Shown: positions 148-59,414 of the stretch, in pieces | Layout of the letters: each line of letters opens with the position of its first letter | Numbering within the stretch: the stretch's first letter is position 1 | Source of the DNA: an uncultured Nitrososphaerales archaeon | GTDB lineage: Archaea; Thermoproteota; Nitrososphaeria; Nitrososphaerales; Nitrososphaeraceae | NCBI GenBank assembly: GCA_963713605.1 | Contig: CAVQMO010000012.1 | Location: 96,001 to 160,000, forward strand | Length of the DNA: 64,000 bases | Reading direction: 5' to 3' | Position numbers and translations under genes: made by a program | The notes under the pieces: generated by a model | What the model was told of the DNA's origin: nothing | Databases searched by the model: none | The model's input: only the letters and a program-made list of their open reading frames with translations

Positions 148-288
148 GGAAGTACATATAGCAAATCACATATATAATCCATAAAGCGCACATAATCACA
201 GTTTAGTCAATAACCTGACAGAAGGTAGGCGACCATTATAGAATAGTGCCGGATTTTGCTATCAGTTTGTATTATCGTTATTCAAAAC

Positions 289-452
289 TAAAAGTTTTTC
301 GGTACAATAAAAAGGTAGAACAACCAGGAGGTTGACCAGACATCTGATTGCTTACCTTGTATCCTTTGCGCGACATATTATAAAAAACAGACAATTAGAA
401 AAGGTAGCGCGCGGCCGAGAATTTGTCCAATTGAAAGGAAAGGACTGGCCGC
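289..452 (+). repeat. Non-coding hairpin module A, copy 1
   Basis: 289-327 matches 42119-42157 at 37/39. Stems GGTAC/GTATC (301-305/359-363), AAGGTA/TACCTT (312-317/353-358), GTCC/GGAC (425-428/442-445), GCGGCC/GGCCGC (411-416/447-452). Confidence 0.7.
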
Positions 453-1144
453 CACTACCAAACCATGCCGATTTACGATATGCTCACATTTCATATTATA
501 TTATTATATAATAGGCATTACGGAACTTGGTTATTTGGTATTCCAAATGACATACTGATGGTGGATTGTAAAATTTGAGTGAAAAGAAGGTGATCAATAG
601 ACTACATGTCAGACGCATTGATTGCATACTGCCAGTTGGTTCCTTAAGAGTGATTTAAAGGCCTCAACTACCAGCGACTATTTGCACAACAAAGTGTAAA
701 AGTAGATAGAGAAGGACTGCCTACGTACAAGAATTTAGGAAAGTTGTAGGTGCTCCTTCTCCCTTCTTAGTGACTGCTTGTATTTAATAATACTTGATTA
801 ACTTCGTAAAGTGACAAATTATTGAAAGCACCAACATTAGAGTGATGTTGCAGTACTAATAAAGTATAATTCGAGCAAATAATCGGAAACTGTATCCGAT
901 AAAACATCTCCTTGTCAATGGAATCAATTGACAGTGTAAAAAGAGGACTAAGTATCCTTTCTAGATACTAACGCACACATTGCCCGCAGTTAAAATAATG
1001 AAAATAACTCATAAAAAGACAGACATTATGAAATTGCTTCTTTTAAGTAACCAAAACAACGTAGGCCCTAAGTACGAAGAAGTTTATATTCACAAGCCAA
1101 CATAATAGTGTCCGCAATATGTTGCCACATTCTGTAAATTAGAC

Positions 1145-1675
1145 CTACCCATGGAGGTGTCGGATTGTACTTGCTTGTACTTTGATCGATTGTGGTTCTT
1201 CTTCTTGTTGTTGTCTTGGATGCTTTTCACTTGTCAGTTGGGGGTATATTGCTTTTGCAACCATATTCTTTATTTTAGAATCATCTATCAATGTATCAAC
1301 TAATTTAGAGAATTCTTCCTCTGGTATCACGCCTACTGGATTTGACATCTGGATAGATTCTATTGCCTTGAGTTTCCAGTGGTAACTAAGTACTTTGGAT
1401 GTCGTGATATGAATATCGTATATCATCTTACCCAATAGAGTTAGAGAATATCGGCCATTTTGTCTTCGTATCAGACCAGTTTCTGTTAGCCTTGTTATTC
1501 TAGAGTAGTATTGTCTTGTTGTGAGTCCCAACTTTCGAATTTGAATTTGATGACTATTACTACCACCATTGTCGACATCTGCAGTAATTGCGATAGTATT
1601 GAACAAAACTAATGCTTTGTTGTCAGATAACGCTCCGAAAATATCTTCTATTGATACATTACTTTCCTTTTTCAA
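1145..1675 (-). CDS. Winged helix-turn-helix protein (ArsR-like, thaumarchaeal family)
   Basis: 176 aa; IFGALSDNKALVLF...LGLTTRQYYSRITRLTETGLIRRQNGRYSLTLLG. Confidence 0.75.
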   Translation of the reverse strand: MKKESNVSIEDIFGALSDNKALVLFNTIAITADVDNGGSNSHQIQIRKLGLTTRQYYSRITRLTETGLIRRQNGRYSLTLLGKMIYDIHITTSKVLSYHWKLKAIESIQMSNPVGVIPEEEFSKLVDTLIDDSKIKNMVAKAIYPQLTSEKHPRQQQEEEPQSIKVQASTIRHLHG

Positions 1676-2436
1676 TTCTTGTACACAGATACTTACATCT
1701 GCATTGCTTATCTTCCTTGATGATCTCGCTCAATTGATACCGTTAATCAACTATTTTATACAAGTTATATTTTTTTCAGAAATGGTGGTTTACATATAAA
1801 ACTTTTATAATAATTCATCCAAAAATGCTGATTTTGTATAAACTAGGTTCAAAGTTTTATATTCATGAATTAACCCTATTGAGAGTTGAGGATTCATGCC
1901 TTCTATCGCATCTGCACTCAATTTTAACCCTACCAATCTTTATTATCAGTTTAAATCCACAAATATAAAAGGCTATATTTGAGTTTTCAAACTAATTTCA
2001 CTTTTTTTGGGTAGTCGTCCGCCAATTTAACACCTTAGACCGACTAAGGACTGGCCAGCCAAATCAAATGCATCAGGGGTAGTATTTCGATGCGCCCAGT
2101 TGTAAAGTGTTTTCATTTATACATAATCTTTCAACTTTTCCTTTGCTAGGGTCCACGTTTACTTGGTTTGGGTCCTTGTTTCCGTGCCACCTTTCAGTTT
2201 ATGTTAGTTATTACGTTGATTTCCGACGCCTGTCTTTATATTTTCCAGCATTGAATCCAGTAACTTATAGTCAATTTCCTTCCTCTTTCCTTTAGATACT
2301 ACCGCCTGACGTGACATTTGCCATTTAATGCCGTATAATTAGATATTATGAATAGTCAACATAATGAAACTATGTGATGAAATAAAGGTTAGGTTAGGCA
2401 TGCGTGTAATGAGGGTATCGATATCTACCTGCTGAA

Positions 2437-2610
2437 TGTTCTACTTGTGTGAGAGTAGTCCAGTTACGGAAATTTCATGATAAACTAAAACCCTGTTTAT
2501 AATTTTTTAGGATAGGTAAGGGTTAGTAAGGGTAAATGGATGCGGACAACACAAACGCCCTTACCTATCCTGTGCAGGTATCCATTGAATTTGGTGTCTT
2601 AAAATTAACA
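2437..2610 (+). repeat. 174-bp conserved structured element B, copy 1 (candidate ncRNA or mobile-element end)
   Basis: Aligns ungapped to 42849-43022 with 5 mismatches; perfect 14-bp inverted repeat 2509-2522/2558-2571. Confidence 0.9.
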
Positions 2611-8845: not shown

Positions 8846-11247
8846 ATGAATAAATTTCCTGAGGAGTTAAATGAGCCCTCTAAGGATAAGATACTGATTG
8901 ATAAAACTCGGTTGCTCATAGCACTAAGAGAATCGCACACGTTAGAAGATGTACAAGCTCGATTACTTGGAACAGAACTTGTACTTGAAAGCGATATGCG
9001 AAGGAATAATGAAACAGGACGTGAACGACCAACGGAATTAATCAATCATACAGATAAACGCTACTGGACCCGATCACGGGAAGGTAACCCTATAAGCGAG
9101 GGAACACTTAATAGATTAAGCGAAATATTTTCTGAGCAACTTGATTGGATAGGACCTGTGTACCAGAACCCAGACCAATCTGGTCGTGAAGGATTATTTT
9201 GTCCGATACCAAATGTTCTGGTCATTAAGTTTGCTACTTCCTTGAGTAGTAAAGACAGCGAATTGTTAGAAATACTTGCTAGGTATAATATGGAAGAGGT
9301 GATTGAAAAATCTAAGTATCTAAATGAGTATCACTACTTTATCATAAAGAATATTGGGAATGAAAATGCCTATCAAATTAAATACATATTATTAAATGAA
9401 TCCCAGTTTGTTAACGAAGTAGTATATGAAAGTATGCCAATGATATTTCCCGCATCCTTACAACCCAATGACACCCATTTTGGTGACCAATGGAATATGA
9501 CACGTATTGGAGCAGGAGGTAAGGGAACTTCAGCTTGGGATACTTCAACTGGTATTAATAATGTGGTTATTTGTATCTTAGATACAGGATGTGATTTAAC
9601 TCATCCTGATTTACAGTTTTCCACACCAGGAGTTCATTTGGATGATATGAAACCAGATGGTTCTCCAATAGAACACCCTTCAGTCCCTGGGGTGTCTGCT
9701 CATGGAACTTCATGTGCTGGTATTGCAGCTGCCATTTTTAATAATAGTCTAGGGGTTGCAGGTGTTGCTGGATCTTGCCAGATAATGCCTCTTGCTCTAA
9801 AGAACTGGACAAGTGCGGAGCTAGCTGCTGGAATCAATTTCGCAAGGATAAATGGCGCCCAAGTTATCAACATGAGTCTTAGAATGGATGCTCTTACCCC
9901 CCTACAAAAGGTGCTTGTGGATGATGCCCTCCAAAGTGCTTCTAATAACAATGTAATAATGTGCGCTATCGCGGGTAACGAAAACGCCAATAAAATAGCT
10001 TATCCAGGATCAAATTCAGCAGTTATTGCTTGCGGAGCATCTGACCAGATAGATAATCGCAAATCACCGACAAGTCCAGATGGCGAAACTTGGTGGGGAT
10101 CAAACTTTGGACCGGAGATATCGGTAGCAGCTCCAGGTGTAAGAATTCCAACAACTGACAACCAGGGAACTGCTGGATTCAATCCGGTAGTACCTCCTAA
10201 ACCAGGAGAATATGGTGATACTAATTATACGAAGTTTTTCAATGGAACCTCAGCCTGCCACTCCACATGTAGCAGGCCTTGCTGCGTTAATTAGAACTTT
10301 GTTTCCAGTGTTTACAAATGCTCAAGTTCAGGCAGCGAATTGAAAAAAATACCGATAAGGTTGGAACGGTACCTTACACTAATGCAGCTGGTCACCCAAA
10401 TGGAACTTGGAATCAAGAAATGGGTTACGGCCGTATTAATGCTGTTAAAGCCTTAATAGAACCTCGTGACTTATGGATAGCCTGGAAAGGCTCTGGTAAC
10501 GATCAACTCAATGCTATGAGCGTATTTGAGCCAAATAAGAGGATTGTATTAGATGAAACAAGTGATACTTCTCTTGCATTAGTTGCCTTTAGAAATAGTT
10601 TTTGGATAGCCTGGAAGGGCTCTGGTAACTATCAACTTAATGTTATGGATATATTTAATCCCAATAGTAAGATGGTCTTAGACGAAGAAAGTGACACTTT
10701 CCCAGCGTTGACAACCCATAACGACCAGTTATGGATAGCCTGGAAAGGCTCTGGTAACGATCAGCTTAATGTTATGGATGTATTTAATCCAAGCAGTAAA
10801 ATAGTTTTTAATGAGAAAATCGATGTTTCTCCTACAATATCTTCCAATGATGACTTGATATGTATAGCCTGGAAGGGCTCGGGTAACGATCAACTTAATT
10901 TTATGAACAACATCACCGTTCCAGGTACTATAATAGTCTTGAGTGATGAGAGTGAAACTTCCCCTTCATTAACCCGATTTAGTGAAGCTTTTTGGTTAGG
11001 CTGGAGAGGCTTGAATAACGATCTACTCAATGCTATGAATGTAGATATTCCCTCAACTAAGATAGTATCAGACCAAGAAAGTTCTCATTCACCCTCAGTT
11101 ACTGAATTCGACGATGACTTGTGGATAGCCTGGAAAGGCTCGGGTAACGATCAACTCAATGTTATGGATATATTTAATCCAAGCAGTAAAAGGGTAATGC
11201 CTGATTCAAGTGATACTGCACCATCAATAGCTTCTTTTAATCCATGA
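8846..11247 (+). CDS. S8 subtilase with C-terminal six-repeat putative beta-propeller; split by two frameshifts (about 10255 and 10329)
   Basis: Triad ILDTG, HGTSCAG, NGTSA; ATPHVAGLAAL continues in a shifted frame; six 43-aa WIAWKGSGNDQLN repeats. Confidence 0.85.
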
Positions 11248-16882: not shown

Positions 16883-17077
16883 CGTTACTAGTTAGAGAGC
16901 AACAAAGTCCTGGGCGTGAAAGTGTTAAAACATTATGGCCAAAATAAGATTTTAAGTTAATAGTTGACAAGTAAAGTATCCCATACGTATGGTTTATAGA
17001 ATAGTAAAGAAGCAATGTAATAAGGAAAATATGTCACTCTTTCATTACTAATACCATCATCATCATCTTTATTTGTA

Positions 17078-17897: not shown

Positions 17898-18071
17898 ATG
17901 GGCAAATGGAAATGCCTGTGGTGTTCTAAGGTTCTGGAAGGTGATTCTTTTATGGACCTGGTCACTGTCTATACAGATAACAATGAACGACCACATGCTT
18001 GGGAAAATATAACCTTAGTTGAAGAAGAAGCCGCATTAGCGAATAAATTATTGCCTAGCCTTCATTCCTGA
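17898..18071 (+). CDS. 57-aa CxxC microprotein
   Basis: MGKWKCLWCSKVLEGDSFMDLV...PHAWEN. Confidence 0.45.
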   Translation: MGKWKCLWCSKVLEGDSFMDLVTVYTDNNERPHAWENITLVEEEAALANKLLPSLHS

Positions 18072-28165: not shown

Positions 28166-28597
28166 ATGTCTAAGATAATAATACTCGTAATCTTTGGTAT
28201 AATTCTAATAGTTTCAGTGGTCTGGGTAGGAACGAGTATGAATGATGTCTTTGTTGCCCAGCGAGAAGCAGATGAAGCACATAAGGACGTTGAACAGGCG
28301 CGACTAGAGGTTGACCAGGTACAACTAGAACTAGACCAAGCAGTAAAGGATTCTGGAGCAAATAAGGAAGTTGAACAGGCACGACTAGCGCTTGAACAGG
28401 CACGACAAGAGTCCGACCAGGCACAACTAGAACTAGACCAAGCAGTAAATGATACAGTTCCAATACTAAAAGAATGCATAAATGCTAACGGATATGACGC
28501 ATGTAGAAATGCAGTAATTGATGCCTGTATATCAAAGGGCGAATCGTCACTTAACGAATGTAGAGAACTATTTGAATTAGTTGAGAGGGAATTATAG
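28166..28597 (+). CDS. Membrane-anchored coiled-coil protein with internal duplication and 4-Cys C-terminus
   Basis: TM helix; VEQARL...QLELDQAV twice; four spaced Cys. Confidence 0.7.
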   Translation: MSKIIILVIFGIILIVSVVWVGTSMNDVFVAQREADEAHKDVEQARLEVDQVQLELDQAVKDSGANKEVEQARLALEQARQESDQAQLELDQAVNDTVPILKECINANGYDACRNAVIDACISKGESSLNECRELFELVEREL

Positions 28598-41827: not shown

Positions 41828-42118
41828 AAATATAATTACGATACTTAAATGTGTAGTTATAACATCAATTCATTTCTTCAGTGAATAAGTCACTAGTGAT
41901 ATTTGAACACTTTCAGGACTTTGTTACTCTTAAACTAGTAACAGAGACAAAAAATAGGTCTACCAAACCTACCCTTGATGAACACCTTACGAGCGATGGA
42001 GGTTAGATTCCGCAGGTACTATTTAGACCAGGATTGGGATTGGGGTAGAGACAAGCCCATGGCCGCCTTATCTTTGGATATTGCTTTCAGACGGTATAGA
42101 ATATAATGACCATTCGGG

Positions 42119-42350
42119 TAAAAGTTTTTTGGTACAATAAAAAGGTAGGACAACCAGAAAAAAATCGAACAGGTACCTTTTGCGTACCTGCTGCTGCACA
42201 CTCACAACATAGTATAAAAGTGGATACTATGGAAGGTATGCAAGCAAGCAGTACTAATAAGACTTCTAGTAGGTAGTAGATCGTGGATTGGATGGATGTC
42301 CTTTCAACGACTGTGCTACCTACCCTTGAGAGTATAGTCCAATTAAGGAC
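42119..42350 (+). repeat. Non-coding hairpin module A, copy 2
   Basis: GGTAC/GTACC (42131-35/42184-88), AAAAGGTA/TACCTTTT, CATAGTAT/ATACTATG (42208-15/42224-31), GTAGGTAG/CTACCTAC (42269-76/42316-23), GTCC/GGAC (42337-40/42347-50). Confidence 0.7.
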
Positions 42351-42393: not shown

Positions 42394-42672
42394 TTGCTAT
42401 TGTACGCCGTTTTGCAATGCCAAAACCCACGACATAAACAGCACTTAAAGAGATTCCTCGCGAAATATCCAACGACTGATAAGAATGGAGAGTTTCCAAT
42501 TATAACAGTAAATCCAGTGGATTGGGCTATTGACTTAGAAGATCCAAAGAAGAATACTGTCCAATGCTGTCAAATGTGTAGTATACAAGAAGATATCAAG
42601 AGAGTAACTAGTCCTGGGTGGACAGGTCAACCTGCTAGTTTTAACCCTTACGAATGGAAGATAAATTATTAA
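42394..42672 (+). CDS. Hypothetical Cys/His protein embedded between modules A and B
   Basis: 92 aa, TTG start; CQNPRH and CCQMC motifs. Confidence 0.5.
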   Translation: MLLYAVLQCQNPRHKQHLKRFLAKYPTTDKNGEFPIITVNPVDWAIDLEDPKKNTVQCCQMCSIQEDIKRVTSPGWTGQPASFNPYEWKINY

Positions 42673-42848
42673 TAATAATACGGAGTTGGCCGGCGGTATA
42701 AAGTGCAACCTAAAATACCAACCATTTCCGATGCCAGGAATGCTTAATCCTATATTACTTGGGTCAATTTTGCTAATAATAGTTTAATTATTGAGTGTGT
42801 AAGAATAGTTAACTCGGCAAGCAGGCATAGACGACCTGCCTGCCGAAT

Positions 42849-43022
42849 TGTTCTACTTGTATGAGAGTAGTCCAGTTACGGACATTTCATGATAAATTAA
42901 AACCTTGTTTATAATTTTTTAGGATAGGTAAGGGTTAGTAAGGGTAAATGGATGCGGACAACACAAACGCCCTTACCTATCCTGTGCAGGTGTCCATTGA
43001 ATTTGGTGTCTTAAAATTAACA
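42849..43022 (+). repeat. 174-bp conserved structured element B, copy 2
   Basis: 169/174 identical to 2437-2610; 14-bp inverted repeat 42921-42934/42970-42983. Confidence 0.9.
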
Positions 43023-43148
43023 AAACCTTTTAAAAATTTAGTAGGTAAAATTTTGAAAATAAAAAAGTGAAAGGTCGTTGCTCCACCTCCAACGTGACCG
43101 CCACTGCCACGGTAACAAGAATCGTCTTCAACCATTAACCAGTTTGAT

Positions 43149-49494: not shown

Positions 49495-51138
49495 CAAACC
49501 GAGCTGCTTAACCTCCAACCCCTTCGCATTAAGAGTCGCGTAAACTGAGTCCAGTATAATTCCTACTCTATTGCGTTCCTTCCTCCCTGCCATGAAACTA
49601 TGGAATACGTGTCAACATTTAAAGTTTGGATGACAGACAGGGCAGTTGTAAGGTATGACATCAAACTTTGAATAATTTCCTCAGGGTTGGTTGTTGATAC
49701 GCTCTAGCTCCCGGTATGGAAACTATTTAATAGTATGCCAAGTATTTACTACTGGCAGTGGGGAGCATTTAAATCGCTCTTAAAGAATCTCACTGCCGAC
49801 TGTATGGTAGACGACCAATGCGTCTGACATGCCAAGTTATTCACTTGGTCGCTATGTAATCCATATTCATTAGATAAAACAGTATCAGCATACAATGACC
49901 CGCCTTTGATTCATGTTTTCTTCCTACCGCTGAAAACATGAGAGTCATTGAGCTACGGGGAATGAACCTCCAGCTAAAGACTTCTCACTAAGCAGTGGAA
50001 CTAATACAAGCCAAGTTGATACACGTCAGAAGAGAGCACCACCAGCAATTGAGGACTTCTCACTACGACAGATTATTCCAGCTGAACTGCCTTTTCTAGT
50101 CTATATATACGTCTAGTAAGAATGGTGGCATAAAGCCCACTCTCTTTTATTTTCTAAACTAAGCCTGTCAGGATCACTAATGTCGCTTTCCTTGAGGAAA
50201 CGGTTGCAAAGATTAATTTTTTTCGAGAGCTACTTACATTTTGTTTGGGTCTCCATGAGACTCTTCAAGTTCGAGATTCAGTTTTTCATCTTTCATTTTC
50301 AACTCATCCATCAATTTGCGCATGTATCGACTATTCTAGGTCGGAGACGTATGTATTAATCTTCACAATGATTATTGTATGATTGATAGGTTAAATAATG
50401 GCAATGATAGTAACTTTTTTTACTTAATTAGTACCAATCTAATAAACCAGTGAGACTCGAAACATGTCTTATCCTAATAAAGGTGTGAGTACTAATTGCG
50501 CATAAAGAGAAATAGTAATTAAGTAAAGTGTTTCTTGTTCAGATTTTACATTCAAAAAATAAAGAACATAATACTTTTCCTGTGTTCTCAAAGCCCATCA
50601 TTCATTTTTTCCTTCTCATTTTCTAACTTATTTGAAGGAAAATAATGGTGTAGATCCATCCATTCTTCTTCGGCCATCCAATAGCTACAAAACCATTTCT
50701 TTAATTTCTGATTATATTCTCCATGTTCGGGCAAAATTAACTACAAACTTGTCACAGATTAAAGGTGCTATAATACTTTTGGTTGATAATTCAATTCCAA
50801 GATTCTGATTCTGATTCTGATGGCAACGGAATCTTTTTTAAAATAGGAAATTCTGAAGGGAATTTTAGCCTTGCGTAGGGCACAGTACCTAAATGTTAGG
50901 GAATTCTGACTAGATATGGAATGGTGATAGATTAAGTATCATGCTGTATCACAACATCCACTGGGCTAATTTTAGGTACCTATCTATCATGACATCACCA
51001 GTGCAACTTCAAGCACATTAAATATTTTTCAGCCAGAAAGTAAATCTTATGGTTTAACATAAGCCGAAAATCCTAAAAACCTCTGGAAATGGGCGATGGA
51101 AATACCTGCCGATGAGAATCCTGTTAATGACTATCTCT

Positions 51139-59135: not shown

Positions 59136-59364
59136 TGGGGTGCTTCATATGAAAAAATGGTCCCCCAAATTGATTTATCAGAAATATATAGATTTCAGGT
59201 AGTCGATGCAATTTCTAGGTCGAGAATCTTAATATTCAGCTCGTTTAAGGTCAGCCAGTTTATTACATTGATACCGTCCTTCTTTCTAGCATTCTAAGGA
59301 TGTAGAAAATTATTCCAGTTATCGTCTTATTATCATGAGTTTATTCATCTTGAAGACCTCTGCA

Positions 59365-59414
59365 TTACGTTACGTTACGTTGCGTTACGCTGCGTTACGC
59401 TGCGTTACGTTGCG
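59365..59414. repeat. Pentanucleotide microsatellite (YTRCG)10
   Basis: Ten TTACG/TTGCG/CTGCG units. Confidence 0.9.

Follow-up and report, generated by a model that had tools for sequence, protein, structure and literature searches.

Predicted small RNA genes of modular hairpin type throughout one genus of Nitrososphaeraceae archaea

Hairpin units and genes of the window

The DNA analyzed here, a stretch of 64,000 nt referred to as the window, lies on contig C12 of an archaeal genome (G000) that is 4.09 Mb in size and 87% complete, and in which duplications are abundant outside the core contig. Two arrays of hairpin units, each accompanied by an open reading frame (ORF), were found in the window and are read on its minus strand. 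The features are as follows.

224..262, minus strand: truncated hairpin unit, with one arm lost compared to the intact copy at C10:135777-135825
289..327, minus strand: 'module A', consisting of a unit's 3' arm with its U-rich tail and the start of the next linker; no element end
314..356, minus strand: variable-loop hairpin unit (z -2.0 on the minus and -1.1 on the plus strand), the stem of which lies 28 nt after a TATA-like box (about 379-386)
403..460, minus strand: variable-loop hairpin unit (z -4.5) with a GTCC..GGAC sub-hairpin and an operator-like motif upstream at about 517-532
585..712, minus strand: class II two-hairpin unit with a TATA variant, a 5' hairpin with the conserved TTTAAATCACTC loop and a degenerate 3' hairpin (97.6 bits with the covariance model, to whose training set it belongs)
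708..760, no strand assigned: divergent hairpin unit at the left boundary of a duplicated segment
1145..1675, minus strand: winged-helix-like ORF of 176 aa, one of 23 related matches in the genome
2010..2062, minus strand: degenerate hairpin unit, the AAGGACTGGCC echo, at the right boundary of the duplicated segment
2385..2615, minus strand: 'element B' copy 1, two divergent units (B1 hairpin at about 2505-2572; B2 linker and hairpin at about 2385-2484)
17898..18071, plus strand: 57-aa CxxC/His orphan gene, a candidate partner with the same genus range as the units
42030..42330, minus strand: second array, with degenerate units at about 42030-42075, 42144-42190 and 42268-42325 and a TATA-like box at 42207-42219
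42394..42672, plus strand: 92-aa orphan ORF with Cys/His motifs, multi-copy, genus-restricted, often broken and enriched beside units
42816..43080, minus strand: 'element B' copy 2 (B2 42816-42900; B1 42917-42987)
49715..49857, plus strand: solo two-hairpin unit (77.6 bits, outside the model training set), outside the region of the original prediction

The original prediction had described the two arrays as two copies of one scaffold, in which a module A and an element B bracket different cargo. The similarities on which it was built were reproduced. Module A is identical at 37 of 39 positions (289-327 vs 42119-42157) and element B at 173 of 179 (2437-2615 vs 42849-43027). The colinear blocks ACATA.TATAAAA (373 and 42207), GTCC..GGAC (425 and 42337), TGGCCG..TACCA(A)ACCAT..CCGAT (446-472 and 42687-42732) and GAATAGTYAAC (2350 and 42803) are present in both copies, and the partial echo AAGGACTGGCC was found at both 440 and 2046. 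Of the pairings that had been proposed, AAGGTA with TACCTT forms the base of one hairpin unit, whereas the outer pairing of GGTAC with GTATC was absent from the folds run. The ORF of copy 1 had been called a winged-HTH (wHTH) gene, and its winged-helix matches in Pfam were weak and all below cut-off; the 92-aa ORF of copy 2 had no Pfam match.

By contrast, the bracket itself was not borne out. Module A has four copies in the genome, two of which (on C10) are without B, and five of the seven copies of the B core have no A nearby; both were found together solely at the two window loci. Homology extends beyond the proposed element: the A side of copy 1 is duplicated along with an upstream zinc-ribbon gene (C10:135.6-136.4k), and B homology runs about 50 nt past its predicted end in copy 2 and in the copies on C2 and C5. 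Because A and B occur independently and homology enters a flanking gene, findings that the original prediction had itself named as speaking against it, the A-B bracket is rejected. A single large interrupted RNA, the first of the two forms proposed, is likewise set aside: individual units have TATA-like boxes and U-rich tails of their own, and they are also found alone or arranged in a different order. The second form was a non-autonomous mobile element; neither a Y1 transposase nor a reverse transcriptase was detected in the 87%-complete genome, and a hairpin pair lay within about 1.5 kb of only one of the eight tyrosine-recombinase loci. A non-autonomous IS or MITE with ends A and B was rejected on the basis that these ends do not co-occur, have no sharp boundaries and show no target-site duplication at the flanks of the window copies. 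At each of the two window loci a gene does lie between an A-type and a B-type unit, in the same order, but with these findings we consider it extremely unlikely that a single mobile unit, or a single interrupted RNA, with exchangeable cargo has A and B as its ends. What stands is the view of the region as structured, modular non-coding sequence. A and B are pieces of a larger family of tandem, shuffled hairpin units, and the wHTH and 92-aa genes lie next to them within accessory DNA that duplicates, rather than being carried by a bracketed element. Segment 704-2034, which includes the wHTH ORF, is duplicated at C10:983.5-984.8k.

Additional observations were made in the window. A short ORF on the plus strand (42948-43070) starts inside the B1 loop on the opposite strand and has a matching frame from 2536; the frame is kept in the C2 and C5 copies (with ATG changed to GTG and a 3-nt deletion), and a small peptide with a cis-antisense hairpin is possible. 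A palindromic GTTACT..AGTAAC motif is present at 41914-41942 and 16884-16912 and in 18 copies in the genome, mostly away from hairpins and in several cases followed by related sequence, and could be an operator or another small element. The copy at 41914-41942 was rejected as an array leader, as 0 of the 18 copies were near a scored hairpin. Tandem repeats were detected at 10463-11234 (129-nt, coding), 28290-28453 (21/81-nt, coding) and 59360-59414 (5-10 nt, non-coding), as was a genome-wide repeat of about 50 nt with roughly 20 copies.

Architecture, range and reshuffling of the units

Breaks in homology coincide with a recurring imperfect inverted pair, the hairpin unit. Units are about 110-150 nt long (roughly 115), are arranged in tandem and shuffled, and are gene-free, with no conserved ORF carried. 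On the strand favoured by G-U pairs, the order is a promoter-like linker, an optional 5' hairpin, a constant stem with a variable loop, and a pyrimidine tail. The constant stem (GGTAGGCGRYC...GGTYGTYYTACC) encloses a loop of 15-45 nt, with a mode of 23-29 nt; each arm is 11-12 nt and without a palindrome of its own, and both arms start with GTAG in most units. In class II, the best-studied class, a TATA box stands 28 nt ahead of the 5' hairpin, the loop of which is nearly invariant. The parts are found in different combinations: the loop of the B2 hairpin differs between copies 1 and 2, and at C3:329.9k the B2 linker stands ahead of a canonical hairpin. Besides A and B, the window contains about ten more units, whole or decayed, among them the solo one at 49715-49857; several copies are decayed.

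A strict hairpin scan detected 15 hairpins in the genome compared to 1 and 1 in two Markov genomes, and an oriented profile, trained on family members, detected 36 above a score of 24 compared to 1 by chance. Rows of units with periods of about 100-165 nt recur in other genomes and in metagenomes. Look-alikes without array context (metagenome loci L047, L048, L055, L057 and L058 and viral loci L068 and L070) and duplicates (L034, L036, L039 and L040) were left out before counting, and L028 and L029 were replaced by genome coordinates.

The units were found throughout one genus of ammonia-oxidising archaea in the Nitrososphaeraceae. Covariance model R1 matched 14 of 14 genomes of this genus, with 1-17 matches each (weak in one genome, E 8e-4), and 0 of 127 sampled genomes from 17 other genera, where distant relatives may be missed because the model was built from one genus. 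A pattern search agreed with R1, matching 8 of 121 genomes, all within the genus, and exact matches to the family pattern among 185,579 species genomes numbered 8, all in three Nitrososphaeraceae assemblies. Homologues with a named source of one protein encoded in the window also belong to the Nitrososphaeraceae. Rfam gave 0 matches in the window at gathering score and 0 at E<=1 in 10 array loci, while viral contigs gave 3 look-alikes and 0 class II units. No description of the family was found in the literature searched, most subscription papers and supplementary tables of sRNAs or motifs being outside that search.

Loops and linkers are exchanged between units. Among 89 hairpins, one loop was combined with different upstream or downstream linkers in 25 and 41 pairs, and one linker with different loops in 3 and 9 pairs. 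In contigs of related strains (three runs), 128 additional nt stand between 620 and 638, and the arms at 329 and 620 are followed by other loops; loops also recur across species. Ordinary recombination between near-identical arms and tails may reshuffle loops and units in this manner. Long duplications end at hairpins in 9 of 2298 cases compared to 4.0 expected, a weak excess in which the ends are not independent.

Pairing, strand and promoter signals

Base pairing was examined in 53 loop-dereplicated hairpins, two of which were in the wrong orientation. Two variable stem positions were paired in 51 hairpins (vs 45.8 in partner shuffles) and 52 hairpins (vs 46.9). The first pair inside the arms, which was not selected by the scan, was paired in 40 compared to 30.5 (p 0.0002), and deeper loop positions had no pairing excess over partner shuffles. 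In an alignment of 23 class II rows, with the structure drawn by hand, 87.5% of cells pair, and double-sided changes numbered 18 compared to 8.2, with 0 of 500 shuffles reaching this count. Most of the covariation was in the 3' helix, where 4 of 8 pairs had double changes, whereas the 5' helix, with 2 of 15, had weak support; RNAalifold recovered the 3' helix alone and not the 5' hairpin.

With regard to strand, single units mostly fold better on the predicted strand (e.g., z -4.65 vs -0.34), B1 being ambiguous. The strand called by U-tail and by folding energy agreed for 53 of 97 hairpins, disagreed for 24 and was undecided for 20. G-U pairs were biased 78 to 18 toward the predicted RNA strand, a figure that is partly circular because folding energy helped to set the strand. 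As judged from sequence, the compensatory changes and G-U bias point to RNA, in the window on the minus strand.

In class II the TATA spacing is fixed. Of the 39 scored rows, which are related to one another and in which both motifs were found, 25 have TTTATA 28 nt ahead of the 5' helix and 35 have it at 27-29 nt. Host genes have TATA-like words about 32 nt before ATG, and the unit spacing is close to this in a comparison that includes the two misoriented hairpins. In another linker class an operator-like motif with TTCCGGAA is found directly before the TATA-like words. The motif has 17 copies in the genome (window 517-532, minus strand; C3:370990, C4:55233, C15:21655 and others), 9 of which are within 400 nt of a scored hairpin, and is likely a transcription factor site common to one unit class and some other promoters. 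Each unit would be transcribed separately from the G-U strand into an RNA of about 45-110 nt, and the different linkers may represent differently regulated promoters. Taken together, the units form a genuine family of modular hairpins, genus-wide and apparently undescribed, and we find it very probable that they are small RNA genes.

Whether the hairpins may instead be elements of DNA, such as REP-like repeats tagged with GTAG or recombination sites resembling attC, by which genes nearby would be moved or shuffled, was also considered. Both arms start with GTAG, the wHTH segment is bounded by hairpins on both sides (with the small excess of duplication ends noted above), eight tyrosine recombinases are encoded in the genome, and single-stranded DNA could also favour G-T pairs. 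In the cassette arrays of integrons, one strand of attC folds better, conserved arms surround a variable interior and modules change order, all of which resemble the units. However, attC ends carry RYYYAAC/GTTRRRY, which the units do not, and the units are gene-free and without an integron integrase: the four of the eight tyrosine recombinases that were scanned gave at best 32.7 bits, far below the integron-integrase cut-off of 265. Similarly, GTAG-family REPs, REP dimers and REPINs are associated with RAYT transposases (PMC3733652) and, like the units, have GTAG at the outer ends of an inverted pair, reach tens of copies per genome and form clusters that carry flanking DNA; by contrast, the arms here have no palindrome of their own and the promoter geometry is fixed. 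The Y1 (RAYT) transposase was found in 1 of the 14 genomes of the genus and not in this one. As no target-site duplication was visible and the fixed TATA spacing, tails and operator-like motifs would be left unexplained, we regard a DNA element as very unlikely.

Apart from the units, the eight tyrosine recombinases are of about 400 aa and below all NCBIfam cut-offs tested (C12:329164, C10:56752, C3:93537, C2:77874, C10:851074 and three more); one adjoins a tRNA-Met gene (C10:850575).

Loops, candidate partners and related systems

As small RNA genes, the units may act through their loops. Complements of 52 loops (one ambiguous hairpin of the 53 being omitted) contained ATG, GTG or TTG in 46 cases compared to 33.0 by shuffling, and CTG, which was not enriched, in 6 compared to 8.2. 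The start-like triplet lies mid-loop, behind a purine-rich stretch; the matching CA clusters at loop positions 11-15 (38 vs 15.6), and the 3' side is G-poor. In-frame stops after the triplet were rarer than expected (8 of 66 vs 22%, p 0.009). The Shine-Dalgarno words GGAG and GAGG were not enriched in the loop complements (3 of 52 each vs 4.7 expected). In the mechanism we propose, the constant stem would display the variable loop, the loop would pair through short seeds with the start-codon region of an mRNA, and this pairing would block translation. We regard this antisense role as the likeliest mechanism, with chances of about even.

Target searches gave no excess. With start triplets fixed, 8-mers shared with the starts of the genome numbered 650 compared to 734, and duplex energy at starts was -20.60 compared to -20.52 (13 of 27 loops). 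Anchored pairing to starts had p<0.1 in 5 of 34 loops, one of which reflects a decayed B1 copy. These gene starts were from a simple caller of our own, and about half of the loops in the pooled target tests were from other species. Pairing of loops to rRNA was not in excess, and exact loop matches in the genome were at chance level, the best non-homologous match being 11-16 nt. The absence of targets would be explained by short seeds or by targets outside the assembly, and also by a protein-binding role.

Several apparent targets were discarded. Anchored start matches of at least 10 nt (25 of 88 vs 11.6 with plain shuffles, the two misoriented hairpins included) lost their excess with shuffles that preserve start triplets. 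A 23-nt target of the B1 loop at C10:645701 proved to be a decayed B1 copy with arms, and Alba, as a target of the commonest loop, has two mismatches in this genome. The G011 loop core had 3 hairpin matches and 2 non-start matches in 5 genomes. A further putative target, an 11-nt match of the B1 loop at codons 1-4 of the 57-aa gene, lies partly in a local tandem repeat, and the G008 and G013 copies have not retained it. The best candidate pair is the TGAGACAAGAA loops and an uncharacterised 152-aa gene family, with anchored matches of 11-13 nt in this genome; both use ATG, GTG and TTG forms. Co-occurrence of this pair was not clean: exact-core hairpins were not detected in four genomes that have the gene, nor was the 152-aa gene matched in one genome with a TGAGACAAGAA-similar loop. 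In addition, the first codons of a gene starting MPID (C3:403590, plus strand), which we take to be ferredoxin-like, match one loop type at 10 of 11 positions.

Genes near the units were compared as candidate partners. Across 68 loci, the two orphans, of 92 and 57 aa, were the most frequent neighbours (at 8 and 7 loci), and no large neighbour gene recurs. Substitutions in the 92-aa family follow a coding pattern (0.35/0.29/0.55 by codon position). Within the genus this family was present in 12 of 14 genomes, and outside it in 0 of 127. Co-location was counted for 79 of 93 model matches, adjacent units of one array being left out: the 92-aa gene was within 1 kb of 7 of 79 units compared to 0.44 expected, an effect that the uniform model overstates, and a strict hairpin was found in 3 of 30 loci of the family. 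The predicted structure of the 92-aa protein (pLDDT 57) gave no fold match, and its Atlas matches, below 0.9 and HNH-like, are a lead only. The 57-aa CxxC/His family, with an invariant CxxC and Trp and a near-invariant His, was present in all 14 genomes of the genus, in none of the 127 from other genera, and with 12 matches in this genome; the gene at 17898-18071 (plus strand) has a short leader behind a TATA-like word, and the protein model (pLDDT 77) gave Atlas matches below 0.9. The copy number of the 57-aa family tracks that of the units (rho 0.84; 0.92 after genome size) more closely than does the wHTH control (rho 0.71; 0.44 after genome size), over genomes that are related and not independent, with assembly depth affecting all counts.

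These findings bear on the possibility that the units are small RNAs acting on protein instead of mRNA. In this case an RNA-binding protein, for which the 57-aa and 92-aa orphans are possible candidates, would be titrated or scaffolded by the stem together with a short loop word that contains CA. Such a role would fit with the lack of target excess in three tests, with conserved loop cores that are short and partly self-paired, with the nearly invariant class II 5' loop, and with the range and copy number of the 57-aa gene. However, a sponge would need fewer loop types than the dozens retained here (53 after dereplication), and the 57-aa gene is within 1 kb of only 3 of 79 units. Protein binding as the function is judged rather unlikely.

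The constant stem, the variable loops with their preferred length, arrays that gain, lose and swap units, and the co-distributed orphan proteins would also be consistent with guides of an RNA-guided system, in which the stem is the handle for an effector and the loop guides it to mobile-element or host transcripts absent from the assembly. Stem-loop TIGR arrays with Tas (bioRxiv 10.64898/2026.09.09.750476) are comparable in that hairpin units have variable interiors and stems that close on CCA...TGG. The units here differ from what is described there in having a variable loop length and no paired 9-nt spacers of box C/box D type: of 52 hairpins, 0 on the RNA strand and 1 on the other had a pair of intervals of the form box C - 9 nt - box D. 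No Nop-domain Tas gene was found beside the arrays, the sole Nop locus in the genome being on C1, away from arrays, and Cas1, Piwi and reverse transcriptase were not detected in the 87%-complete genome. Loops recur across species rather than turn over like spacers, have no long perfect target in the genome, and belong to units of which no class II member was seen in viral contigs. Guides of this kind are distinctly unlikely in our view. The Nop-domain gene (C1:928362-929040, minus strand) is in two pieces in different frames, by frameshift or assembly error.

In mode of action the predicted small RNAs would be most like the cuckoo RNAs (CcsR1-4 of Rhodobacter, Rfam ar14/NfeR). According to PMC8034643, these are clustered small hairpin RNAs, often of two hairpins each, whose clusters duplicate and reorganise and whose pyrimidine-rich loops suit translation start regions; they have one invariant CCUCCUCCC loop word, the CcsR RNAs are processed from a 3' UTR, and the small protein CcaF1 (DUF1127) is encoded with them. 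The archaeal units share with that description the repeated and often paired small hairpins, reorganising clusters, pyrimidine-rich loops and small-protein genes nearby, but differ in their constant stem and variable loop and, in class II, their own TATA box. The defining loop and partner are lacking: no invariant CCUCCUCCC loop was found, as unit loops vary, and the 92-aa and 57-aa neighbours had no Pfam match to DUF1127.

A more far-reaching reading combines these features into a new programmable archaeal RNA system, in which a separately promoted guide library with a constant stem handle and exchangeable anti-start-codon loops, shuffled by recombination at the stems, is read by the genus-specific 57-aa zinc-finger-like protein and silences host or mobile-element messages. 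We consider this unlikely. If true, it would amount to a microRNA-like layer without a Cas, Argonaute or Tas protein, and should the stem be read by a single small protein, the units would constitute a new RNA-guided system that is programmable.

The literature searched contains little on riboregulation in archaea that oxidise ammonia. The hairpin units correct the first reading of this locus, as arrays of this kind can pass for transposon ends. Found in every sampled genome of the genus, in up to dozens of copies with a fixed scaffold and interchangeable loops, the family offers a concrete model, open to testing, of how antisense regulators may be assembled into a repertoire and reshuffled.
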